A stretch of DNA of 64,000 nucleotides from Podarcis cretensis (lineage: Eukaryota). Within the stretch, counting starts at the first letter, position 1, and each line of letters opens with the position of its first letter. A program made the translations under genes and the position numbers. A model generated the notes under the pieces. The model made no database searches, was not told where the DNA came from, and saw only the letters and a list, made by a program, of their open reading frames with translations. The stretch spans positions 45,880,001 through 45,944,000 of the forward strand of contig OX638159.1 of assembly GCA_951804945.1 (NCBI GenBank), given 5' to 3'. Positions 1-17,971 of the stretch are shown piece by piece.

Positions 1-1868
1 CAGCAGCACAGCCTGCTGGACTGGTTGTACATAAGAAGGCAAACAGGGCGATGGATGGCTGAAGGCAGACTGAGATTGGTTAGTTGGTGTCCCATTCACT
101 TTAATGGACCAGCCTCCTCTGTGGTAGGTGAGTCCTGCCTCAAGCAGAATCTGGATAGGTCTTGTTTTGGCGAGGAGTGCTCTAGCTCTGGATTTCCTGC
201 ACTGAGCAGGTTCTTGAACTAGATGGTCTACAACATTTGAATAAGACCATCAGTGGGTGGAATTCAGTGTAGCACACAGTGGGGTCTGTATACATGGAAT
301 AAGATCTGTTCACGCAATGTGACTTTTTCAACTTCTACTTCCCCTCACATGCCCACCATGTATCCCCTAAATGTGTTCTCCCAACCCCCCAGAGCAAATT
401 TAGGGGGCTGTAATGCTTTGAGCAAGTGAATCTTATTCCATGCACACATGAATCGCACACAATGGGTCTACTCTGACTATGAATTATTGGATCTAACCCA
501 TGGATACATTTCATCAAAGTCCCCCAAGATTCTCTTTTAGGTTCCAATATCCCTTTCTTCTCAGCCTTTTAATTGACCTCAGGGTGGGGCAGAGAAAAAC
601 TGAGGGTGGAGGAACCCTGGAGGCAGACAATCCCCAGGAGAAGGGAAGTCGTTTCACTTTTATTACTCACCACACTTGACCTTTTTTTTTTTTTTTTTTT
701 TTTGCAAACACATTGTAGTATATGAGTGGAGTGCCTCAACTGCTGAACAGTGCTGATTTTATTATATAAATATAGGGCTCTTCTTAAGAAATGGAAAGCT
801 TAGGCAATCGCTCGCTTTCCGGTCCACACACGCTGCCGCACTCAATGGTCCTGTTAACAGCTAGATTTTTCAATCCACCTTCCTTGATTCTGGTTAGATT
901 CAACCTGCAAGGCACACACAGAACATGATATGTGTTGATCCCACTTTACAAGCAGTCATTTGAAGCAGCCTCGAATTTGTTAACAGTGGGACAACAGGGA
1001 AGGTATCAGGTTTGCCGTGAACTTAACTCCCTCAAAGGGAGCTCTTTAAAAAAAAAGTTTTGGTTAATGAAATGTATCATAAAGAGGGAAAAGTTCAAAC
1101 ACTTGCTTCATGTGCGTGTTATACCCTGCAGGTATGGTATTTAACGCCCCTCTTAAACCATGTCTTTTGCTTTTCCACTTGAAACATAATGAGGAAGCCA
1201 AAGAATACTGTAGGCTGAGATTTCTATGGTTCTGATCACAGGGAAGGTTTACAAGAAGGCAATGCCGGAATACAGCAGCGTCTCTTTGCAACCCCACTGC
1301 AGGGGGCTTCATATTGTACTCCACTGAAGAGTACATTTTAGAGTCAGGAGGAGCGACAGATGAACACTGCCACCCCCCTCCACATCATGATATACTTTAA
1401 TAGAGGAGTCAATTTGCAGAGTTCACATGGTTCCATGGGGTCATTGTCCTAATACCACCCGATTTGTTGTACTTTTATGCTCTGGAGGAAATCTCTTGAG
1501 TAACAGTGAGTTTATTTAGCTGCATAAAGTTTGGCTGGCTCCAGTTCATTCAGAGGCCTGTGTGTGGAAGGCAGGAAAATCCCAGCTTGCAGCTTCAGAG
1601 GAGTCGGTGCTCAGTGACATTAATAAGATCCAGAGCCAAGAATTGGACAGCTGTGATCTTCTTTATCCTCTGCCCTGCAGGGTGAGTGTGTTTTAAAGCT
1701 TATCATCTTCTTTACAGTATTCCTCGCCCCGTACTGTTGCAGCATGAATGGGGCTGGGAAGGCTGGAATAACAAGAGAGCTGAGAATTGCTATTCTCACG
1801 TCGCTTAGTGAGCTATGCGAGAGCAGTGGGTACAAATGTATCTAAACAAGATTCTCTCTACAGTGGTA

Positions 1869-2230
1869 AAAGGTAAAGGTACCCCTGCCCGTACGGGCCA
1901 GTCTTGACAGACTCTAGGGTTGTGCGCTCATCTCACTCTAGAGGCCGGGAGCCAGCGCTGTCCGCAGACACTTCCGGGTCACGTGGCCAGCGTGACGAAG
2001 CTGCTCCGGCGAACCGGCACCAGAGCAGCACACGGAAACGCCATTTACCTTCCCGCTAGTAAGCGGTCCCTATTTATCTACTTGCACCCGGGGGTGCTTT
2101 CGAACTGCTAGGTTGGCAGGCGCTGGGACCGAGCAACGGGAGCGCACCCCGCCGCGGGGATTCGAACCGCCGACCATGCGATCAGCAAGTCCTAGGCGCT
2201 GAGGTTTTACCCACAGCGCCACCTGCGTCC
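1869..2230 (-). mobile_element. Sauria SINE, young, inserted at a MITE TIR
   Basis: Reverse complement of the SINE head and (ACCTTT)n tail. TSD CTACAGTGGTA at 1858-1868 and 2231-2241. Confidence 0.92.
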
Positions 2231-2256
2231 CTACAGTGGTACCTCTACAGTCTCTA

Positions 2257-2498
2257 TAGTGGTACCTCGGGTTAAGTACTTAATTCGTTCTGGAGGTCCA
2301 TACTTAACCTGAAACTGTTCTTAACCTGAAGCACCACTTTAGCTAATGGGGCCTCCTGCTGTTGCCGCGCCACCGGAGCCCAATTTCTGTTCTCATCCTG
2401 AAGCAAAGTTCTTAACCTGAAGCACTATTTCTGGGTTAGCGGAGTCTGTAACCTGAAGCATATGTAACCTGAAGCATATGTAACCCGAGGTACCACTG
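2257..2498. mobile_element. Tc1/mariner-superfamily (Tigger/pogo-like) MITE, family A
   Basis: TIRs (C)AGTGGTACCTCGGGTTA / TAACCCGAGGTACCACTG, TA TSD, internal TAACCTGAAG repeats. Four copies in the window. Confidence 0.9.
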
Positions 2499-5295
2499 TA
2501 TTTATAGTCACCTTGATGAGAACCGCTAAAGTAGGATCATTCTTACAAGGAATCATTGGGGGAGGGGGTAATAAACAGGCATTTGAAAGGAGTGGTGTAG
2601 TAGATTCTGTAGATAAAAGAAGATGGACTAAAGCTCTGAGGTGGTAAAATCCAGAGGCACAGCATGTTCAGTAAAAACTTTGGGAGAAATGTCTCCCCGC
2701 TCAAAAGTCTGCTTACACCGGATGTGGAATGCAGCTGCATGTTTTCTAATAACCAGGATGTTAGGAAGGTTCTTTCTGTGTGTGTGAAATGAAGGCTGTT
2801 AAATGGATGCAACAGGGTGATTATGTAATGCTATCTCTATCCCCATCCCAGCTCCTCTTATGAGAAAGCAATCCTGGATTTGTTCCCCCACCCCAAAAAG
2901 GTTTACTAGCAATTTAATAAAAGGGACTGTTTCACAAGTTATTTTAATTTTAAACATATGCAACTTAATGAATCACTCCACTCTTTTACATACAACGCTG
3001 AAAATAAGTTTCAGCTTGTATGACTATGTGGCCAGGTTCCTTTAGGGCAATGCATGTGACGGTGAAGGGTCTGAAATCTGGTGAATGCCAGGCATCCCAA
3101 ATAAATAATTGTAAATGTCTGAAATGTCAGGGATACACTGGTGCACATATTGTAGACCCTCATTTAATAGTGACTGTCTCTTTCAAATGCCCCCAAAGTG
3201 GGATAATTGGGGTCCTTCACAAAATTCCCCTGGGATTGTCAGCATGTCAACATTCACCAAATTTTGGACATCCAGTGAAATACATAACGTATAATTGTCA
3301 GGGGTCCCTTTACCTTTACCTTTACCTAATCTGCAGCAACTAGTGTCCTGTTAAGGGTAAAGCAACTTAGTGATCCTATATTTTCTGCCAAGCTGAGTCA
3401 ATGTCTTCAGGATTGTATCCTCCTGATGAGCATTTCCCATCAATCAAGAAGATAAAATCCTTGCAGGCAACAGATGCTGATTCTTAAACAGCTTAGATGC
3501 TCAGACCACATCAGAAATGTCAAGAAAAGCCCTTTTGAACTTTATTTATTGTCGTCAAAACGAAATTCACCTTTCATCTCCCTTAACATCATATCCTTTT
3601 CTGTAAATTTCTTAAACTGCTGCACCTGCTTCAGTAGGCTTTTAATTGGGATTTTTATGACTTTTATATTTGATGTCCAAATTCCACTATAACAGATGAA
3701 TATCACCAGACTAGATGTGCAATTAAGGTAAACAGCTGAAGGAGATTATATATTATACCAGAAAACTGTATTTTACTTATATAAGTTTCAGATTTATTTG
3801 TTTATTGCAGTTATGATCATTCAGTTTATCATTCCTAGACCAGCATCTCAATCTGAAAGTTGTAGGGTTTACGGTAGCTAGCAAAATTAGAAACAAAATC
3901 TATTTTCTAATGTGATCTATGGGATGAAAGACAGCCACACCTAACAGTCTGATCCTTAGCTTATCCTAGCATAACTTCCACTGAGTTCAGTGGGGCTGAT
4001 ATACAAATGAGTATTCACCGTACTGCAAACTTAATTCCATAATTAAGGGACTTAGTTAATAATTTATAAGTTTTGATGTCTCCATACATACAGAGAAATT
4101 GGTTTTTGCATATATAGTAGTTAGGAATACACAAATCAGTCTATTTGTGAACTGTGTCAATTTCCCAAATTCATTCTGTCACAATTTCCTCATTAATCTA
4201 TAGATATTTTTTTAAAGTACTTAAATACACGTTTAATTAATGTACAGACATCTGAATGTACACACTTCTAAATATATTTTATTTAATATACACACTTCTA
4301 TGCCTTTGGGGATATACTTTGAGCTGACAACCAGAACACAAAACTCAGAGAGGGCTATTACATTCTGACTTGTACATAAGTCTGGGAGGTGAAAAACAAG
4401 TCAGTTCCCTTTCAAAATGCAATCAAAGTGAAATGTTTATTCATTCCTAAAAAGTAGTTCAACTTGGGTGAGGTGCCACATGAATGAGCAGAGAACTGTT
4501 TATTAAAGATGGAGGACACCAGGTTGGGGAAGGTTGATCTAATCCAATGTTTGTAGAATGCTCCCCCAAGGGAGTAATCATCCGACTGTGACACTTGGCA
4601 TTGGATAGTCACTAGCACCAATGAAATTACTAGCAAGGTCAACAGGTGCAGGCAGTTGTGAACCCCACCTTTAAAACTGAACAATTTCCTCATTCACTTT
4701 ATTTAATAACCCAGATTGATTGACTGTGCAACCTTTGCATTTTCTCCACCAATATTTATCTTCTCTTCCACAATATTCCTATCCTACACAAAAATGTAAA
4801 CTAGCTGCAACACTGTTAACTACATTCGGAAATAAGTTATAACCCTGTGATGAAGAGTTGCAGGATTTGGACCTCTGATAAGTCTTTAAAATCTTTTTAT
4901 TCCCTGCTTCAGTAAAAAAAAATTGATGCTGTCAAAACAAAGAGCAGATTAAGCTATAAAAGTCTGGAATGCACAGTAGGCATGAGGTTTTAGGAGTTAC
5001 AGATATTGTGCATTGAACAGCTGATACATGGATCTATCAAAAAGTTAAATATTTACAGAATAATTTATTTGGGTATATTAAAGGCTTAATCATTTCTGGA
5101 AGGATCTTCCTAACCAAAGAAAGACGATAATGCTAGACATGGACAATCATTGACAAAAAAATGAATTTTGTTATGTAACTATTGCATCTCTGTGTAGAGC
5201 ACTAGGGTCCAAGATTCATTCTGCAACAAACATACTTCAGGGAAGAGCTGTAGCTCAGCGGTAGAGAATCTGTTTTGCATGCAGAAGGTCTCCTT

Positions 5296-7733: not shown

Positions 7734-10081
7734 CTTCCCTCAAAGAATCCTGGAAACTGCACTTGCTTGGAGTTCCCTATCTTGCACACAGAGCTACAGT
7801 TTACCAAGTGGCTTAATCATTCCCTCTTCCTAGGGAGCTCTGGGAATTGTAGCTCCTCTTCCAGATCCCGCTTGCTCATGTGCATGTGCTAAACCTTGGT
7901 TTGGCTTACTGTGACACGTGAACCAAGCCAGTATGTGCATTCCTATCATGAAAACCCATCTAACATGAAAAGTATGCATCTTTGGTCAATTGTGCCTGCT
8001 TTATACCATGCTTTTTAAGAGCAAGTAGAGAAGTGCAAGGTTGTTCACTTTCGATTCATGGGATGGCTGTTTCCACTAGACCTACCTCTAAACCAACATA
8101 GAAAGTGTCCAGGTATTATTCGACTCTAGCTCCCATCAGCCTCAGCCAGCATGGCCAATGGTCAGGGGTGAAGGGAGTTTTAGTTCAGCAGCATCTGAAG
8201 GCAACTATGTTGACTACCACTGATCTTAACAGTCTTCTCTGTTTTAGGTTGGGAAAGCTAAAGTGATTTTGTTGATGCAACTATCAGGAATAGTGTTTTA
8301 TCTAATGTTCCTTTTTGTCTGGACTCAACAGGGTAATGTGCAGTCAAATTTGCATATAGTTAAACTCCAGGCAACAGGGCTGCAGGACACAAATGTATCT
8401 GTCAAAAGTTAATGAGCATCTGTTTACTATACTTGGGCTGCAGTGTTAAAAACATAAATTTAACTCAGCTCCCCCCCCCCCAAGTAAATATGCCTGCTTT
8501 GAACATGAAGGGGTTACCTGCAGACAAAAACAAAACAAAACAAAACAAAAAACCGTAACTTGAATATATAGAGAGACTAAAGCTGATCCCTGTAATTTAG
8601 CTCTTTTGTAGTACAGCAGTCTAAAGAAACAGATAGCTTAGTTGTTTCAGATGTTAGACTTCAATGAGCCAGGATGGATTTCTTTTAAGATGGCACCAAT
8701 TTTTATCTAATTTATTGGCTTTGTAGTCTTTATGAGTTTGCTTTCTTAATGTCAACAATTAAAGAGGGATTCACACTCATTTAGTGGTCACCTTCTTCTT
8801 TTTGGAGTCCATATATTCTTTTATATTTAATTCCCATGTGGATTATTGGTGTGTCTTTAAAAAATAATAATAATCACCTGTCTCACATGCTTCAGGGCCA
8901 GCTTTCAAGATTTAGTAACCACAAGTACAATACCTGAATATCATCTAAAGTTGATGAATAATGACAAGCTAGCTATATGGCTGGCTTCCTATGTGGCAAA
9001 GGAACTGCAGTGGCAGCAATGAGTTATTACAGGACACGAGAACCATTGCAAGAGAATCTATGAAGTGTCAAGCCTGCACTCTTCAGACAAGGGATCATTG
9101 CTCTGTAGTACAGACAGGATAGTGGAGAAATTAACTTCAGTTCACATTTAAAGACAAATTGACCTATTTTGCCATTTCTCTATCTATTTTCTCCATGCCA
9201 TGCATAATTTCATAAATTTCTACCATGTCACCTCTTATTGCCTTTTCTCTGAACTAAAAAGTCCCCATTACTGCAAACTTTTCTTGAAGAAGAGTCATAG
9301 CAAAAGGCAGAATAAACCCTCATAACAGGGCATCTGGGGGGCAGGATTGGGCTGCGCCAATGTAAGATCCACGGGATCCTGGACAGATCCTGCTGCCCTA
9401 AAATGATGGCATTGGGCTCAATTCGGACCTCTTTGCTATGCGTGCCCCTACAACTTCCATCATGGATGGCGCAAGTGTTAGTGCTCTGCATGCAGTGCTG
9501 GCTGTGCCACTTCATTAACTCCTGCCACAGACAGACAGGGGTAAGGATTGCACCCTAAGCCAATATGGCTCTCCTACTACCACTCTGTGTGCAGTACTGG
9601 TCAAATGGAGGCCACATTCACTCCATACATGTAAAACACTGTGATACCAAGAGTCATGGCTTCCTCTAAAGAATTCTGGGAGTTGTTGTTTTTTGCAGGG
9701 ATTAATGGGTTACTGCCTTTGGTTTGATTTTGTATGTTGTGGTCTTGTTGTGAACCGTCCTGAGACCTCTGTGTATAGGGAAGTGTATAAGTTGAATTAA
9801 TAAAACAAAAAATAAAATGGGGGTGTGGAGAGTTGTTAAGGGAATCCTATTCGCTTCCCAGAGCTACAGTTCCCAGAATAGGGAACTATGGGGTCTCCTA
9901 ACAACTCAGAACGCTTAACAAACCACAGCTCCCAGAATTCTTTGGTGGAAGCAATGATTGTTTATGGGACACAGGTGGCGCTGTGGGTTAAACCACAGAG
10001 CCTAGGACTTGCCGATCAGAAGGTCGGTGGTTCGAATCCCTGTGACGGGGTGAGCTCCCGTTGCTCGGTCCCTGCTCCTGC

Positions 10082-10785
10082 CAAAGCCACTCCCGATCTG
10101 GAGAGGGGGTGGGGTTGCGGGCTCACGACCCATCAGCAATCTCGTGGGGCTGGCATCAGCCCCGCGAGTAGCAGGGATTCCCCTAAACTCATTAGTATTC
10201 ACCGCCCTCAGCGGCAGCCAATCGGCTGCCGCTGGGGGCGGGACCTCAGGGATCATTTAAGGTCGGGGCAGCCCTGGCTCGCCCCTTTCGTCTCCGCAGC
10301 AGGCGACGCCCCCCGGAGTCCTTTAACGAACTACCCTTCAAGCTTTGGGGGAGGTGATAGCGTTCCTCCCCCCCCAACCTCATTTCCATAACAATACCCC
10401 TGCCAATGCCTAACCGCCAAAACCAGGAGTTGTGACGTTTTGCTACAAGGTAGGCGAAAAAACCAAGTGGCTATCAAATACAGCCAATTAAGCCAAATGG
10501 AAAAACTCCTACCCGGCCCCATGCGGCGACCAGCCGAAGCCCATAGCAAAGTCCAAATGCAGGCCTAAAGGGCGGGTGGGCGGGAAACCGCTGCTGCTGC
10601 GGAGACGAAAGGGGCGAGCCAGGGCTGCCCCGACCTTAAATGATCCCTGAGGTCCCGCCCCCAGCGGCAGCCGATTGAGTTTAGGGGAATCCCTGCTACT
10701 CGCGGGGCTGACGCCAGCCCCGCGAGATTGCTGATGGGTCGTGAGCCCGCAACCCCACCCCCTCTCCAGATCGGGAGTGGCTTTG
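10082..10785. repeat. Inverted repeat pair from the Ngaro A-type repeat (10082-10302 vs 10594-10785)
   Basis: Near-identical reverse complements. The left arm has 29 extra bp (10191-10219). Confidence 0.95.
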
Positions 10786-11200
10786 CGTGGCGATACCCTC
10801 CCCATCCCAAGAAGAACTAAATAAAGACACCGGACACCAAATTTAAGGTTAATGGGCGAAAATGGCCACAACTTTATTGATTACAGGTAAGAGCGGTATT
10901 GGCTTTAGGCATTGGCCCTACCAGACTATCCGGTCTAACCGGGAAGGGTTAAGCACCAGCCGGGAGAGCCCCCGAGATGCACATCCCTGGGCGCTCCCCA
11001 GGGGGTTACCGCTTGGGAGCGCGCTTTAGGCCCTAGCCTCCGTAGGTTTCGGACGAGGCAACGCCCCCCGGAGTCCTTTAACGAACTACCCTTCAAGCTT
11101 TGGGGGAGGTGATGGCGTTCCTCCCCCCCAACCTCATTTCCATAACAATACCCCTGCCAATGCCTAACCGCCACACGATCCAGGCTCGCCGCCAATACCC

Positions 11201-11775
11201 TCAAACCTGTAACCAATCCCTGATCCCATTAAAAATTTCGGCCAGCCACACATCATTACCATCATCAGAAAGATGCACGCCATCCCCGCGGTAGAGTGCC
11301 ACGCTGCTATAATGGATGCCAGGGTGTTCGATGACACTCCCCCCCATCGCAGTCACTCTACGTGCCACCGAGCGCTCAAGGATCCTCCTGGCTCTATTTA
11401 CCGCCACAGGGTTGGTGGCACCCCGCCAACAGTGCCTCACCAGCAAAGATGACCATATAATTGTAAGTTTTGGACAGGCGACCCGCAATGCCTCTAGGTC
11501 ATTGATAATATGCCACATAACGTCCACCCCCTTCCTGTAGGCCAGGTCATTCTCGCCCAGCTGGATGACCAGCGCCTCGGGTGGGCCCAGTATTGCCAGT
11601 TTATTCGATAACGTTGGGAGGAATTCCTCCCAGCGCATTCCGCGACGAGCGAACCAGGAGATTTTAACATTATTAGGGAGCTGCAGATCATGACAGCCAC
11701 CTCTGCTAAGCGCCCGCCGTCTTGCCCAGTAGACGATGCTATGACCGAGGATCCATAGGCGCACCACACCAACAC
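11201..11775 (-). CDS. SGNH/GDSL-type hydrolase (esterase) carried by the Ngaro element
   Basis: Block I WILGHSIV, block II RGMRW, block III QLGENDL, block V DGVHLS. Frame is open and preceded by a polypyrimidine-CAG acceptor at 11776-11800. Confidence 0.88.
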
Positions 11776-11844
11776 CTGGAAAGATAAGAAAGCAGGAGAG
11801 CCGGATCAGGGAGGGGTGCAAATGGGGGAGGAAAACAACGGGGT

Positions 11845-12723
11845 TTAACGTGATTTCCTTATGTAGCCCTTGTAGGCATTAGACTTCCATCTCCTCATGT
11901 CCATTATCCTTTCGGCCGGTAAGCCCATATGAGCAGCCGTGGTAGCAGCCCCAATGCGGAACGAGTGCGCGGCATAAGCCCTCGCTGGGAGCCCGATGGC
12001 ATCGATCGCCTTGCGCATCACCCCCGTGAACTGGTGTTTTGTAAGGGGGGAGCCATCAGCGTGTATGAAGAAGGAGCCAGGCGTTTTTTGCCTTAGGTTA
12101 AGGAACTTCCTGGCGTCCTTAACAGGGCATGGACCAGCCCTACCAGTAGCCTGCAGACGGACCAAAGCGCCTCTGCCAAGTTGGTCGGTCTTTGAGCTGC
12201 GGATTTTTAGTACAACCTCAGAACTGGACAATGACACATCCTCCAAGAGGAGCCCCCTAATGACGGTAAGCAGGTGGTTGTCGCAAACCACCTCACCTAT
12301 GCGTAGTGCGCTGAAGAAAGCGAAGGAAAATGCTGAAGAGAATAACCTGGTCTCATATCTGGACCAGCAGATGACTCTGAGCTCAGAACGTAATTGCATG
12401 AGAATGTCAAAAGTTATGGGTCTTCTGCTATCTCTAATAGGGGGGTGGGATCTTCGCCACCCCTCTAGCATTTTCCGCACCATGAAGTGTGCACAGGGGT
12501 CGACTGAGAACAGGGCTTTGGAGAAGAACGATATCGCTGCCGAGTGAATGTTAAGGGTTTTGGGGTCCCCGCCTAGGTCGTGAAGACGCACCAGGTACTC
12601 GATAACCTCTGACTTTGACGGGGGCTTGCCCGGTTTAAACCAATCTTTTTTCTGTCTAAACAGAGTGAAATCTAACCACGCCTTGTTGTAGGATCTTAGT
12701 GTAGAGGGTGCAACTGATGACAA
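11845..12723 (-). CDS. Ngaro tyrosine recombinase
   Basis: Catalytic set present: FSALRIGE (R), SKTDQ (K), HSFRIGAAT (HxxR), RWKSNAYKGYIR (W, Y). No ATG at the start (TTG). In-frame TGA just upstream at 12742-12744. Confidence 0.95.
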   Translation of the reverse strand: MSSVAPSTLRSYNKAWLDFTLFRQKKDWFKPGKPPSKSEVIEYLVRLHDLGGDPKTLNIHSAAISFFSKALFSVDPCAHFMVRKMLEGWRRSHPPIRDSRRPITFDILMQLRSELRVICWSRYETRLFSSAFSFAFFSALRIGEVVCDNHLLTVIRGLLLEDVSLSSSEVVLKIRSSKTDQLGRGALVRLQATGRAGPCPVKDARKFLNLRQKTPGSFFIHADGSPLTKHQFTGVMRKAIDAIGLPARAYAAHSFRIGAATTAAHMGLPAERIMDMRRWKSNAYKGYIRKSR

Positions 12724-12731
12724 TACTCCCT

Positions 12732-14314
12732 TTATTGCTTCTCATTGCCAATACTCCAGAGGTGTTCCGGAAACGGCTGCGGCAGCTGCTGCGCATCCGG
12801 CACCAATGAGCGAAACCGTTCCATCTGGAAACGAGACAGCGCATCCGCAATGTTGTTATCAATACCCGGTACAAATTTAGCAGAAGCATGTAAGTTAAGG
12901 CGAAGACAGGAGAGGACAAAGTATCGCAAGAGTGACGCCACTCTAGGGGAGCGAGCGGATTGCTTATTTAATACTGACACCACGGCCTGGTTGTCTGTCC
13001 AAAAGCAGATCCTCCGATCCTTAAACTGCTCTGCCCAGAGATGGATTGCGACCACGATAGGGAAGAATTCTAAGAATGTCAGGTCGCGAAGAATGGGCTT
13101 TCCCTGCCATGAAGAAGGCCAGCGCTGTGCGCACCATTGACCCCTGAAGTAGACGCCGAAGCCCAAAGACCCAGCTGCATCCGAATGTACCTGGAAGTCT
13201 GCACGCAGGGCCAAACTGTCTTGCCATAGTGAAATCCCATTGTAACCGTTTAAAAATTGGAGCCAAACTTGGAGATCGGATTTAACTGCTCTTGAAAGGC
13301 ACACCCTATGATGTGGCGACCTTAGACCTGCGGAGAGTTTAGCCAAACGACCACAAAAAGGCCTGCCAGGGGAAACTACCCGACAGGCGAAGTTGAGGTG
13401 ACCCAGGAGCGATTGGATTTGCCTTAGGGTCACCTTCTTTAGGGGCAGAAGCTGAGAGATGAGCTCTCTTAGGGCAATCAGCTTTTCGGCAGGTAAGCGG
13501 GAAGTTTGAGCGATAGTGTCAAGTTCAATGCCCAGGTAAGTCATCGTGGTAACCGGGCCCTCCGTCTTCTCCTCAGCTAACGGGACACCCAGTTCGTCGG
13601 CCAAGGACTTAAAGGCCTGCAGCAAGGCGTCACAATCATGTGCATTATTTGCTACCAAAATAAAGTCGTCCAAATAATTCCCCACCCCTTCGGAACCAGT
13701 TTTAAATTTTAGAGCCCATTCAAGGAAGGTGCTGAAGGTCTCAAAGGCAGCACAAGCGATCGAGCACCCCATGGGCATTGCTTTATCAATAAAATAGGAC
13801 CCCTGGAATTTAAACCCCAGCCAGCGATAATCCTCCGGGTGAACTGGAAGGAGGCGAAAGGCAGATTCAATGTCGCATTTCGCCATGAAGGCGCCCCTGC
13901 CAAAACCCCTGACCAACTTCACGGCTTGATCAAAAGAAGCGTACTTCACCATGCAGAGCTCCTGAGGGATAGCATCATTAACCGAGGTGCCCTTGGGGAA
14001 GGACAGGTTGTGTATTAGCCGGAATTCGCCAGGAGCCTTTTTTGGAACAATGCCCAGCGGTGAAATATGGAGCTGATCTATGGGAGGGGTTGTGAATGGG
14101 CCAGCAACCCTACCCGCCAAGATTTCCTTCTGGATCTTTTTTAAAGCAATGCCTGGTCTCTCTAAGACTGATTTTTGGTTAGGGGGGCAGCTAGAGTTGG
14201 GAGTGAATGCAACCGGAATTCTGAACCCTGAAGAAAACCCTTCCCCTAGAAGAAGGGCGGCCTGCTTATTGGGATATAATTGCAAAAGGGATCTCAAGGG
14301 TGGGAGTTTAATTG
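12732..14314 (-). CDS. Ngaro reverse transcriptase / RNase H (N-terminally truncated, frame open)
   Basis: Motifs ISPLGIVPKK, FRLIHNLS, KCDIESAFR, MPMGC, YLDDF; RNase H SDAAGSLGFG, LEFFPI, WTDN, NNIADALSR. Residues upstream of 14314 in the ORF track come from SINE/LTR sequence. Confidence 0.95.
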
Positions 14315-14360
14315 GTTGCTCGGTCCCTGCTCCTGCCAACCTAGCAGTTCGAAAACACGT

Positions 14361-15185
14361 TGTCAGAGCTGCCCGAGGTCCCAGCTCACAAAGGACCAAC
14401 GCCAGTTCGTTGTTATATACAAAAGTCTTTATTTAAGTTCAGTTTCGATTTCAAAAGCCGCGGCGCGCAGCTCTACATCTCAAACTCTAGACCGCTGAAG
14501 CTCCATCTGAATCTCCTCCCCCCAGACACCAGTTTAAGACTCTAGCCTTGCTCCACCTCTTCCTTTGCTCTTTCCTCCTCTGGGTCCGCCTGTCCGCTGG
14601 GGTCTTGCCCTTTCTAGACTCTTCTGACGCTGAGTCCCCTGAGTCTTCCCCCTCCCTCCGGCGGGCTTTAGGACCTGGTTCCCAATCCGGGTTTTCTGCC
14701 GTCCCGCGCGCCTGTACATTCAAACTTGGCGCGCGCGCCCAGCCGGCAACCTTTCTCCTGACCGTTACACTGCTCCTGTCACTGCTTCCCCCTTCGGGGA
14801 GGCTAGCTGGACCTGACTTCCCCTCCGTTCCCTCACTCTCCGATAGAGGCGTGGTCAGTCCTGACTCATCTTCTCTCCCTGCTGGAGGAGACGCTGGCCC
14901 TGATACATGGGACTCTTCCCCCCACTACGCTCTGGTGGGGGAGCTGGTCCTGATCTCCCGCTGCTGCTTTGGGAGTCCCCGCTGGCCCCTTGCTTCTGGT
15001 GCATCTCCCCTGGGACCCCCCTTGCCCTGGCCCTCGGCGCCCCCCTCTGGGAATCTTCTGATTCGCTGGAGAAGCTCATGGAATCTCTCGTGCCACTGTC
15101 ATACTCCCCTACGCTGCCCTCAGATTCTTCCCCTTCGCTCTCCATTTCCTCTCTCCCCTGTGCCTCTGCTCCTGAGCCCCTGACA
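14361..15185 (-). mobile_element. Solo LTR (825 bp), family undetermined
   Basis: Termini TGTCAG...CTGACA, perfect 5-bp TSD CACGT (14356-14360, 15186-15190), AATAAA on the minus strand near 14428-14433. Cleanly interrupts a Sauria SINE. Confidence 0.9.
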
Positions 15186-17971
15186 CACGTCAAAGTGCAA
15201 GTAGATAAATAGGTACCGCTCTGGCGGGAAGGTAAACGGCATTTCCGTGTGCTGCTCTGGTTCATCAGAAGCGGCTTAGTCATGCTGGCCACATGACCCG
15301 GAAGCTGTATGCCGGCTCCCTCGGCCAATAAAGCGAGATGAGCGCCGCAACCTCAGGGGTCCCTTTACCTTTACCTTTATGACTGTTTAAAGTGCCATTG
15401 TGGTGTTTTAAACGTGTGGAGTGAATGTAGCCTGATTCACTTCATATCGTGATTTAGCATGGTAACTCAATAGGACAGAGTCTCCACCTGTTGACATGTC
15501 CTAACATCTTGACCCTCCTTCCCTTCCCACTTCAGACAATATGGCCGAACTCTTGGCTCATATTTTTTGGATGAAATTGTTTGAAACACTTCCATAATTA
15601 GCTAGAGCTCTGCCTTGGAGAAAGCTGAGAGTAGGAATGAGTGTGTGTGGGAGAAGGGGAGCCTGCCATGTTCAAGACTGTAAAACTTCTGCAGTTTTAT
15701 AAGTAACACCAGAAAGCGCGAACTCCTGCATGCGGCCGTTCTCATGGCTTTCATTAGCGCAGGGAGTTAATCAAAAACACTTCGACCTCAGGCAAGTACC
15801 ACTCTGCAACGAGAATATTAAAAGGGGTATAAAAACATCATGCTCACTCTTGCATTAATTTGCTTAGTCCTTTTAAAAATAAAAATAATGAAGGAGTTTT
15901 GCCTTTAAGAGAGAGCACTGTAGGTGTCAGCTAACACCTGGCATGTCTTTGAATTTACTATGTTTGTGCAAACAAATGAAATCTGATCAGTCGCTCTAGA
16001 AGGAAGTTACAGAATATCCTCCGGATGGCTCATCCATTGGACAGAGAGATGGGGATGGTTGAAAAATATAGTAAATGGGAGTGGTGAGATGGTGGGAGCA
16101 GAGTGCATATATTCAGAGCTATTTTTCTAGAAAAAAAGAGAAGCCAGAACTCACCACAAACACCTCCCTTGTTCTCTTATAAGGGCAATGGTGCCTACCT
16201 GAGAGGTGCCAGAACTGAGCTCCAATGCATTGCAGCTGAACAAAGCCCTAGCATATATTGGTGCTGAATAGAGGGGAAGGGGATTCCAGAGGGAAAGGGA
16301 AACAAGACATTCCAATGAAAATAAAGGTGAAAAGTGGGGCTTGAAAGGATCTGGAATAGGTTCTTGCAGGGTATGCATAAAGGAGCAGAACTTTAAAAAT
16401 GGTCCCAGCCACCTGTGGGTTCTGGAACTTAAGTGGTGAGAAAGGGGGGCTTTAGTACTAGTCTGAGCATTTGAAAGACTAAAAGTCTGAGCAGAAGGAT
16501 GATAACAGAGGGTTGGAACTTCATCCCTGCTTTCACCTGCTGTTGCATGCTGGGAAGACTGGCTACTAAATGCCCAAGAGTGGTGATTCACTGGTTTGGT
16601 TTGTTTGTGTGGTTTTTTGGTTTGTTTGTTTGTTTTAAACTAAATGAAAGAACAAAAAATATTACCTTAAAAACAACAACACTTTATGCGTTGATTTCTT
16701 TAAAAGCAAAATAAAAAAAAAACCATTCACTTCAGAAAAAGAAAAGAAAAGTATCATGTGCTTAGGAGGCAGCTTCCCTACCACCTCACACTTAGAATAA
16801 AGCCAAGCCAAAGATATCACAAGGTTTTCAGGAAATGGGAGCACTCAGGAAGATGGCAGAATACAGACCACTGGAGAGATAACTTGGAGAATGGAAGAAA
16901 AGACTCTAACAAAATCTCTCCCCACTTGATAATTCTCAAATGCAATTACTTTTCTCTTTAATTGACGGTGGGGAAAACTGTGAAAGAACTTTTCATTGCA
17001 TTATTAATTGTACCTTCATAGCGGATTGTCTTCTGTTAGGGAAATCCCATTATCAACGTTAGGAGAGTTTAAATATTAGATTCATTTGTCCCAGATCTAA
17101 AGCTTTTGGAACTTTATGATGATGTGTGTCCATTATAAGTTATTCTGTTGCACTAATTAATAATAGAGCGGATGCTTTTGAGTATTTCTGTTTACTCAGC
17201 TTGCTCTTCTATGAAACTAATCCACACCTACATTATTTATGATTAATGAGCACCTCTCCAGTTTACAGCAAATAAATTATGCAGAATTAAAGGACAACAG
17301 ACAAATGAATTAGTGGAGCCACACCGATTCAGTCTGAGATTATTACATTTGTTTGCTCATGATTATCCACAAAATATACTGATTACAGCCAAACTGATAT
17401 AACTTCATGGATTTAAAAGAACAGACATTAGTTGAGTTAATGTCTGATGCGCATGAAAGATGGCTTTGGAAGGACAGCTGAGCACATCCTTATGATTTCA
17501 AATAATAATGATTTGCAGTAGTGAGCATGCAAATTTGCTCCCAGATTGCCTTAAATTAACTGCAAATCAGTGACAATGTTGAGTGATCATGTCCTGAAAC
17601 AAAAGGCATCTATTGCGTTTAGAATAAGCCCAGGCCTTCAAAATAAAGGTCCACAAAACACCAATATACAAATATAATTTCTGGAAAGCTGTGCTTATTT
17701 GTTCATTGGCTAAAGATAAATAACCTCTGAACAGGAAATCAGTATTCAGCATCAAATTCACTACAATACATCATTTATTCAACACCAGCAAAATGACAAT
17801 CACAGCTATCAAATCACAGTTCAAAGGGGCAGCGCTTGACAGTTCCCATAGTAGTGAAGAGCATTAATTTGTGTAGAATCAAATTAAAACACACACACAT
17901 GAAAAGAATGTGCTTGGTGATATTATTGTGCCAAGAGCTAATCCTCTACCCCTTACCTGTGTTGCCATGTA

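Follow-up and report, generated by a model that had tools for sequence, protein, structure and literature searches.

The window analysed here, a stretch of 64,000 nucleotides, contains a rearranged copy of what its sequence identifies as a Ngaro retrotransposon (order DIRS), and this copy is probably the product of a one-ended integration: the recombinase would have joined one end of the element, likely of minus-strand cDNA, to the host, and host end joining would have completed the other. Set against a canonical two-ended integration, the insertion has a native 5′ end, no 3′ end and a 25-bp duplication of host sequence.

Structure of the insertion

An earlier note on this DNA described an exact 25-bp duplication enclosing two inward-facing fragments, and both features are confirmed. 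The same 25-mer occurs twice in the window sequence (Table 1), and the insert consists of an A-repeat piece on the plus strand and a 4-kb block on the minus strand, their sense 3′ ends pointing inward and no poly(A) tail being present. It is the 4-kb block, and not the A-repeat arm, that is inverted. As had been proposed, the RT ORF is where the block begins, its first base corresponding to position 3598 in a natural Ngaro copy of 7132 bp, and it stops early in B2 (after 117 bp, or 119 bp counting the AG microhomology, which was also seen as described); the accompanying statement that neither native terminus is present fails, the arm starting at base 1 of the A repeat. Missing from the insert are 3.4 kb (the gag region and the start of RT) and 274 bp of B2. 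Arm and A2 differ at 2 of 189 aligned bases, as against 9 of 218 between the arm and the nearest other copy, and thus belong to one element. Two features went unmentioned in the earlier note. At the right junction there is a microhomology, AC, and A2 has lost 29 bp near 10677/10678, a deletion that removes one hairpin arm and is absent from the A-repeat arm (10085-10302).

Assignment to Ngaro follows from the layout A1-[ORFs]-B1-A2-B2, with its split direct repeats, of which the window keeps the 5′ end of A and B1-A2-spacer-B2 (the last in part); the arrangement of repeats and ORFs is that given for Ngaro in excerpts of PMC8547959 and PMC9210276. The RNase H match within the RT ORF is weak (E=0.23). 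So too is the PF00589 match of the recombinase ORF, yet this ORF lies in the expected place. Among the window ORFs, Pfam found no methyltransferase domain at E<=1 and no rve domain (DDE integrase), and a PDB sequence search gave no match of note. A hydrolase ORF in the absence of a methyltransferase is what sets Ngaro apart from PAT and DIRS elements; the hydrolase match here is the weak one listed in Table 1.

Table 1. Features of the insertion and of its host SINE (window positions)
Feature	Position	Strand	Remarks
Left target duplication of host SINE	9954..9964	+	11 bp, 1 mismatch to right copy
Host SINE, 5′ part	9966..10084	+	
First copy of 25-bp duplication	10060..10084	+	Ends on CAA target core
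Ngaro target core (C)AA	10082..10084	+	Native recombinase junction 10084/10085
Native 5′ end of element, A repeat	10085..10302	+	Bases 1-218 of about 226
AG microhomology	10301..10302	+	Inversion junction
Truncated B2 repeat	10303..10419	-	117 of 391 bp kept
A2-B2 spacer	10420..10585	-	
A2 repeat	10586..10782	-	Private 29-bp deletion
B1 repeat	10783..11173	-	391 bp; B1 end + A2 start = internal B/A junction
Last ORF, stop to stop	11201..11878	-	Weak GDSL/SGNH-hydrolase match, PF13472 E=0.008, below cut-off
Predicted tyrosine recombinase ORF	11845..12741	-	PF00589 E=2.1e-4, 21.6 bits, below curated cut-off 27.1
RT/RNase H ORF	12732..14314	-	5′ end cut at element position 3598; PF00078 E=1.8e-13
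2-bp microhomology, right junction	14315..14316	-	AC on element sense strand
Second copy of 25-bp duplication	14315..14339	+	Continues into original right flank
Unrelated nested insertion in same SINE	14361..15185	.	Solo-LTR-like; TG...CA ends, 5-bp target duplication
Host SINE 3′ part, last segment	15186..15378	+	
Right target duplication of host SINE	15379..15389	+	

The insert splits a single host SINE into a 5′ part and two 3′ parts (14315-14360 and 15186-15378). We take this SINE to be of the Squam1/Sauria SINE family and the host to be a lizard. Since the halves are in register on single SINE copies elsewhere in the window, and one common target duplication frames the whole, the possibility that the flanks are two SINE copies joined by deletion is ruled out.

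The left junction

At the left junction the arm follows host AA directly, exactly as in other copies; outer 5′ junctions end in AA in 90 of 97 cases, and of 104 outer 3′ ends, 97 have a B end reading ...CACGCAA or ...CACACAA. Because the native 5′ end sits at the usual AA target core of the family, we take this junction to be recombinase-made. The CAA previously read as a microhomology is the recombination core of the family, and the arm itself is nothing other than the family's normal 5′ end, a finding that the earlier note itself had listed as one that would refute its model.

In that model a staggered break presents two 3′ overhangs that capture minus-strand Ngaro cDNA, the recombinase being uninvolved. 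The geometry of two sense-direction extensions and the 2-bp microhomologies at two junctions are in its favour, but it gives no reason for an exact native terminus at the consensus target site, nor for a duplication that ends on the core, as happens here and in ten other insertions – that is, in all 11 members of the class described below. A natural 7132-bp copy contains 116 CAA words, so random priming exactly at the terminus is unlikely. Capture without the recombinase is largely refuted by these observations, and we give it almost no credence.

A class of one-ended relatives

Among 116 Ngaro insertions examined, 91 have two native ends without a long duplication, while 11 combine one native end, one truncated end and a flank duplication of 8-334 bp that stops exactly at the core. 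Long duplications are found in 11 of the 19 one-end-truncated copies, the other 8 having none, compared to 0 of the 91 two-ended copies (Fisher p=1.8e-10). Eight duplicate the left flank (the window copy, 25 bp; L003, 28; L025, 260; L078, 115; L063, 16; L068, 96; L136, 11; L142, 108) and three are mirror cases with right duplications (L096, 49; L027, 8; L209/L210, 334 bp, all counted with the core), a ratio of 8:3 (p=0.23); given that both polarities occur, the strand exchanged is not fixed by class. At the non-native ends there are 2-bp microhomologies (the window copy, L063 and L068) or filler copied from nearby sequence (60 nt in L025, 10 nt in L142, 36 nt in L136), both of which are signs of end joining. 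Truncated copies with long duplications, which the earlier note had proposed counting together with inward inversions, recur in this set; inversion is seen in the window copy only (1 of 116). In L097 the core plus three right-flank bases recur near the truncated end, possibly a very short duplication, and this copy is not among the 11.

Several candidates were rejected. L063 had appeared to be a second inverted case, but its 'inverted' piece is an older element that served as target, and the copy is a plain 16-bp left duplication. The 3′ truncations of L028, L030 and L070 are later nested insertions, with the native 3′ end further on. Duplication calls in L083/L084/L087 and L076 proved to be A1/A2 repeats and that in L139 an internal match; in L028 and L070 the calls made for a second element came from distant repeats.

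Two-ended relatives (n=86) comprise 47 with A2-B2, 28 ending at B1 and 11 solo-like copies, and bear on the position of the exchange. The host base at -3 on the left is not C in 51 of the 86, and no right end (0 of 86) deviates from the C of the element; the crossover lies 3′ of position -3 in every one. This position fits a one-strand exchange, or two cuts within AA. The stagger of tyrosine recombinases is 6-8 bp. Were a wide staggered two-strand exchange responsible, two products would be expected, of which only one is seen in these sequences.

Later repair as an alternative

The main rival explanation is that the end structure arose after integration. A two-ended copy would have inserted first; while it was heterozygous, a break inside it would have been mended with the empty homologue as template, copying on one side beyond the insertion point and closing by end joining, so that 25 bases were duplicated, and a further break would have turned the inner block round. 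Repair by one-sided invasion and end joining is well established, and this explanation predicts the same end structure – one native end, a duplication that stops at the core, both polarities – together with the same signs of end joining. At the window locus, two deletions (of 3.4 kb and 274 bp) would have to be combined with an inversion and an invasion of the homologue, and in our judgement about one copy in ten seems a high rate for chance breaks. Four young-subfamily duplications, with 1 difference in 798 bases, also count against later repair, albeit weakly, as such a figure has to be read against host diversity.

The two explanations could not be told apart with a control set of Copia elements, the best 40 among 763 candidates. 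Clean 5-bp duplications are present in 34 of the 40; long duplications, in accord with later repair, occur occasionally (L274, whose LTR ends are both intact, 110 bp; L280, within tandem repeats, 674 bp; L254, ambiguous), and a comparison of 11/116 Ngaro with 0-3/40 Copia copies gives p=0.07 to 1.0, values that do not carry specificity of the class to the recombinase. The strict pattern of a native end, a truncated other end and a duplication abutting the native end is found in only 0-1 of 40 Copia copies, which goes against later repair. On balance we regard later repair as unlikely, while treating it as a serious competitor.

Evidence from read contigs

Read contigs from 4 of 23 listed runs were compared with the window, SINE copies swamping the junction and empty-site signal. 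Contigs identical to the window copy extend 284 (X15) and 163 (X16) letters past 14316, off the window. Such extensions would fit either an intact allele, as later repair allows, or a graph chimera with a paralogue having the same first 33 bases; against the former, the X16 contig depth of 20.8 is that of a mix of the window copy and a half-depth paralogue.

The same extensions could be taken to mean that a normal copy resides here and that inversion and duplication stem from chimeric reads or mis-joining, the three junctions being known from the assembly alone. An assembly error is nonetheless very improbable. There is no N in the window, all three junctions are exact to the base and carry biological signatures, and X16 contigs are identical to the inner block, with no other letters at the private variants of the arm. 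Furthermore, duplication at the core recurs in ten insertions on different contigs, some with diverged copies (L078, 4 mismatches in 115; L003, 1 in 28), which an assembler would not create. In X1 and X19, which carry other species labels, contigs of the flanks were found, and those of the element are all of paralogue type, a hint that the insertion is missing from these runs, although contigs are no proof of absence.

Discussion

One-ended integration, our preferred reading, can be laid out as a series of steps, all of them read back from end products. The recombinase would exchange a single strand: at the core, the minus-strand cDNA would become joined to the host by its A end, the other host strand being left empty. 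Were the host DNA then nicked, or a strand displaced, 25 nt upstream of this point, both sides would retain those 25 bases. Sense-strand synthesis from the left would halt at A base 218; the right host end would be linked, via AC, to a point within the RT gene of the element; and the sense stretch running from the RT gene to B2 base 117 would meet the left product via AG. For DIRS-1, excerpts of PMC7192593 describe a single-stranded cDNA of antisense polarity that is linear for the most part.

From either host end the element is read in the sense direction, as would be expected with a minus-strand template, and both repair junctions have 2-bp microhomology (chance about 0.024 for the pair). 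The mirror-image priming of the earlier note therefore survives in its geometry – two sense extensions on a minus-strand template – and not in its recombinase-free origin. A mirror-image second priming downstream of the recombinase-made first junction is a plausible source of the inversion. Whether it took place at the repair step, or a reverse-transcriptase jump at the A-repeat end had already occurred just before, is about even; the arm ends within A bases 185-230, a zone that also holds the first break of 13 of 24 internally deleted copies. For an analogue of twin priming, a gap of 3.4 kb between the two products is large, and this counts against the reading that we prefer, as do the occurrence of both polarities, the eight truncated copies that have no long duplication, the single case of inversion and the long duplications among the Copia copies. 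Complementarity between A and B does not explain the inversion point, the longest perfect complements being 7-8 nt and lying away from A218/B117.

More tentatively, and going further than the evidence obliges, Ngaro elements – perhaps all DIRS-order elements – may integrate in the manner of integron cassettes and CTXphi: the exchange at the AA core would involve a single-stranded cDNA and its minus strand alone, after which the element would be copied in by host synthesis. Such integration would abort in about one case in ten, giving a one-ended copy with a core-anchored flank duplication, and the window locus would be such an intermediate primed from both host ends. We think this generalisation possible rather than probable.

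The available text of PMC7192593 (2020) calls the circle-and-recombine model of DIRS-order integration largely untested and recombinase specificity unstudied. Our literature search, in mostly open-access papers, found no description of one-ended products for DIRS/Ngaro, and there is nothing on them in excerpts of PMC9940879 and PMC6681497. If the class is what we suggest, these common, easily scored half-finished insertions offer a genomic read-out of the integration step, countable in any assembly rich in DIRS-order elements, that annotators would misread as repair captures. Should later repair be the true cause, the class would represent a frequent repair outcome at heterozygous insertions, and be less surprising. 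DIRS-order elements are said, as a rule, to make no target duplication; this needs qualifying, since 11 of 116 insertions have 8-334 bp of host DNA duplicated and are thus a source of small host duplications.

There are parallels with several known systems. The window copy has the split direct repeats, the RT and the tyrosine recombinase of Ngaro elements, and its last ORF may be their hydrolase; from other Ngaro it differs in having one native end only, a 25-bp host duplication, a 4-kb inversion and the loss of 3.4 kb and 274 bp. DIRS1-like elements, as described in part of PMC3266345, recombine at 3-bp junctions without target site duplications, and the native junction in the window likewise lies at a 2-3-bp core. 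Retroviruses provide a second parallel: HIV-1 under sub-optimal integrase inhibitors or with a weak integrase, and ASLV with one bad end, give one-ended integrations that, in excerpts of PMC5041404, combine a normal enzyme-made end, a host-joined and often truncated end, either element orientation and long host duplications. Those events arise in cultured cells perturbed by drugs or mutation, where a DDE integrase acts on double-stranded linear DNA, whereas here a tyrosine recombinase would have acted in natural germline insertions, in about 1 in 10 copies examined. Integron attC x attI recombination (PMC3458562, in part) and CTXphi integration by XerCD (PMC3442271, in part) resemble the mechanism proposed here in using a tyrosine recombinase, one strand of a single-stranded substrate and host synthesis afterwards; they are bacterial, use folded hairpin sites and have been shown experimentally, while for Ngaro both the single-stranded substrate and the one-strand exchange are hypothetical. 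Finally, L1 twin priming, to judge from excerpts of PMC2837659, likewise leaves one element in two opposite fragments enclosed by a target duplication, with some internal sequence deleted and with microhomology, but the window insert lacks poly(A), its 3′ ends point inward rather than outward, its first junction is recombinase-made, and the template would be minus-strand DNA and not mRNA.

The left junction is a native terminus

We mapped the ends of the window's element against natural copies from the same genome (1.5 Gb in 51 contigs). In these copies the A repeat – part of the split direct repeats of Ngaro, A1-[ORFs]-B1A2B2 – starts directly after host AA and B terminates in ...CAC(G/A)CAA. 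The AA is present at 90 of the 97 outer 5′ junctions, with A at position −3 in 2%; on the right, 78% of 104 flanks open with C or T. The window's site matches this target pattern and its A-repeat piece, the arm, begins at A base 1. The arm is thus the element's 5′ terminus, still oriented as it was originally, CAA is the recombination core, and it is the 4-kb block that has been inverted. The earlier note was right about the exact 25-bp host duplication, the strands of the two pieces and the AG at the internal junction; its CAA microhomology, absent native termini and inverted A fragment give way to this reading. With a native terminus at the target core, its headline claim – capture without the recombinase – is scarcely credible.

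Coordinates of features in the window and at loci elsewhere in the genome
Feature	Position	Strand
25-mer, left copy	10060-10084	
A-repeat piece (arm), between the 25-mers	10085-10302	+
Hairpin in A repeat	10202-10241	
Inverted block: RT, recombinase, weak hydrolase match, then B1, A2, spacer, 117 bp of B2	14314 to 10303	-
29-bp deletion in A2	~10677	
25-mer, right copy (exact)	14315-14339	
Solo-LTR-like insertion	14361-15185	
~410-bp repeat with A repeat (example)	L111:1400-1815	
Copia copy with long duplication	L274:1079-6404	
Copia copy nested in Ngaro	L005:4795-9686	

Both 25-mers lie within a single host SINE, of a kind that points to a lizard host, rather than two joined by deletion: aligned to single SINE copies from other parts of the window, its halves stay in register, and the whole is enclosed by one 11-bp target duplication (1 mismatch). 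The same SINE carries, 21 bases from the Ngaro site, an 825-bp solo-LTR-like insertion with TG...CA ends and a 5-bp target duplication. The block matches reverse transcriptase (PF00078, E=1.8e-13), recombinase (PF00589, E=2e-4, below cut-off) and, weakly, hydrolase (PF13472, E=0.008).

The arm spans 218 of the ~226 bases of A. Arm and block derive from one element, since the arm is closer to A2 (2 differences in 189 aligned bases, and a 29-bp deletion found in A2 only) than to the closest other copy (9 in 218). Two substitutions and one indel separate B1 from B2. The 29-bp deletion, between short CA repeats, removed one arm of a hairpin (18-bp arms) found in the A repeat. The right breakpoint falls at position 3598 of the nearest copy (7132 bp), so that the element lacks ~3.4 kb, as well as the final 274 bp of B2. 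Microhomologies are AG at the internal and AC at the right junction; the chance of two such is ~0.024.

A class of one-ended insertions

Regions were fetched around part of the matches of seven genome searches, each scoring the best 40 of 56 to 4020 candidates (for one search, the copies fetched were those also returned by others). The 250 stretches merge into 136 loci, window included; leaving out L111-L130 (20 loci with one A repeat carried within another small repeat), counting the segmental pair L209/L210 once and adding a second element in L028 gives 116 insertions. In this sample, biased toward long, young copies and classified by hand, 91 insertions are two-ended, eight combine a native 5′ end with a truncated 3′ end and a left-flank duplication, and three are mirror cases with a right-flank duplication; one end is truncated without long duplication in two and six, both ends are truncated in two, and four have an ambiguous 5′ end. 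L209 and L210 (G000:C8, ~93 kb apart) hold the same one-ended insertion twice, within a near-identical segmental duplication.

All 11 flank duplications (left: window 25, L003 28, L025 260, L078 115, L063 16, L068 96, L136 11, L142 108 bp; right: L096 49, L027 8, L209/L210 334 bp) stop precisely at the core. Core-anchored duplication marks 11 of 19 one-end-truncated versus none of 91 two-ended insertions (p=1.8e-10); left outnumber right duplications 8:3, not a significant bias (p=0.23). Non-native ends of the class show 2-bp microhomologies or filler copied from neighbouring sequence, both typical marks of end joining. In the count that the earlier note called for, long duplications accompany truncation in 11 of 116 insertions; among these 116, inversion is confined to the window's copy.

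Among young Copia copies (the best 40 of 763 candidates), 34 of 40 have clean 5-bp duplications. In L280, a truncated copy, a duplication of 674 bp lies in a tandem-repeat region; L258, L268 and L287 lack duplication, and L254 is ambiguous. Long duplications in 11 of 116 Ngaro versus 0-3 of 40 Copia copies give p=0.07 to 1.0, depending on the count used. One young Copia, L274, retains both of its LTR ends intact within a perfect target duplication of 110 bp, and looks like a natural one-ended integrase event. A young Copia family is nested in the Ngaro copy at L005; the best 40 of its 763 candidates share 99% identity, and it has a single ORF of 1311 aa.

Crossover position and a probable template-switch zone

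Among 86 two-ended copies with both ends located, the host base at left position −3 is other than C in 51, and every right end keeps the C at −3 and the A at −2 of the element; the end-finding pattern demanded both bases, and inspection of all failing copies revealed none near-complete with a variant core. Since left −3 varies and right ends never deviate, crossover always falls within or just after AA, which is compatible with one-strand exchange or with two cuts very close together. In 28 of the 86, A1-ORFs-B1 has native ends without A2-spacer-B2; recombination between B1 and B2 could have produced these copies, as could integration through the inner B/A junction.

The first break lies at A bases 185-230, a zone chosen after the data were seen, in 13 of 24 internally deleted copies (L029, L030, L035, L039, L043, L052, L076, L109, L204, L211, L220, L244 and the second element in L028). 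The arm's end, A base 218, falls inside it; L025 and L039 end at A2's end. The zone likely marks a change of template by reverse transcriptase (strand transfer). It lies just downstream of a TTTAA and pyrimidine tract in A.

Two further observations concern related repeats. A whole A repeat sits within the ~410-bp repeat of L111-L130. Near-identical copies of this repeat, at least 20 in number, match at their outer ends and have inner flanks in common; it is a small element that captured and amplified the Ngaro 5′ repeat. Many young copies (L132-L191) match L067 at both terminal regions (89-99%) with a diverged middle, which suggests recombinant subfamilies swapping coding regions between common ends.

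Discussion

The probable explanation is one-ended integration, begun by the recombinase and finished by host repair. The recombinase would join the element's A end to the host at the core, probably by exchanging a single strand with minus-strand cDNA as substrate, and leave the other host strand empty; with a nick or displacement 25 bases upstream, those bases would be kept on either side, and the gap would be filled by host synthesis and closed by end joining.

The main alternative, less probable in our view, is that a normal insertion was repaired later, while heterozygous, from the empty homologue. The end structure it predicts is the same, and the Copia counts fit either reading. Contigs from sequencing runs X15 and X16, identical to the window's copy, run 284 and 163 letters past 14316, misfitting the window, and could represent an intact allele; however, the first 33 bases past 14316 match the nearest paralogue exactly and differences (17 in 304 bases) are closely spaced, so a merged path is equally possible, and the depth of the X16 contig fits a mix of the window's copy and paralogue. 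Short-read contigs (4 of 23 listed runs), where matches are swamped by SINE copies, show none of the junctions. Assembly error is very improbable given ten other cases, some with diverged duplicate copies.

Under one-ended integration, the inversion could arise if the right host end primed second on the same minus strand, so that the earlier note's mirror-image twin priming survives as one option, only following a recombinase step; or reverse transcriptase could have jumped at the A end before integration. The data do not separate the two.

The window's element shares the layout and coding content of Ngaro as given in PMC8547959 and PMC9210276, and on these grounds would be identified as Ngaro. 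Elements of the DIRS order are described as integrating by recombination at a 3-bp junction, with no duplication of the target (PMC3266345), and minus-strand cDNA is the form shown to accumulate for DIRS-1 (PMC7192593). In the main texts of mostly open-access papers, our searches turned up no description of such one-ended, long-duplication copies for the DIRS order. With this class, a so far untested step in the biology of retrotransposons can be counted and put to the test. The nearest precedent is one-ended retroviral integration, in which one end is normal, the other is truncated, element sequence may occur in either orientation and a long host duplication adjoins (PMC5041404). In integrons, according to PMC3458562, one-strand exchange with replicative resolution has been shown, whereas for Ngaro we propose it from end products.
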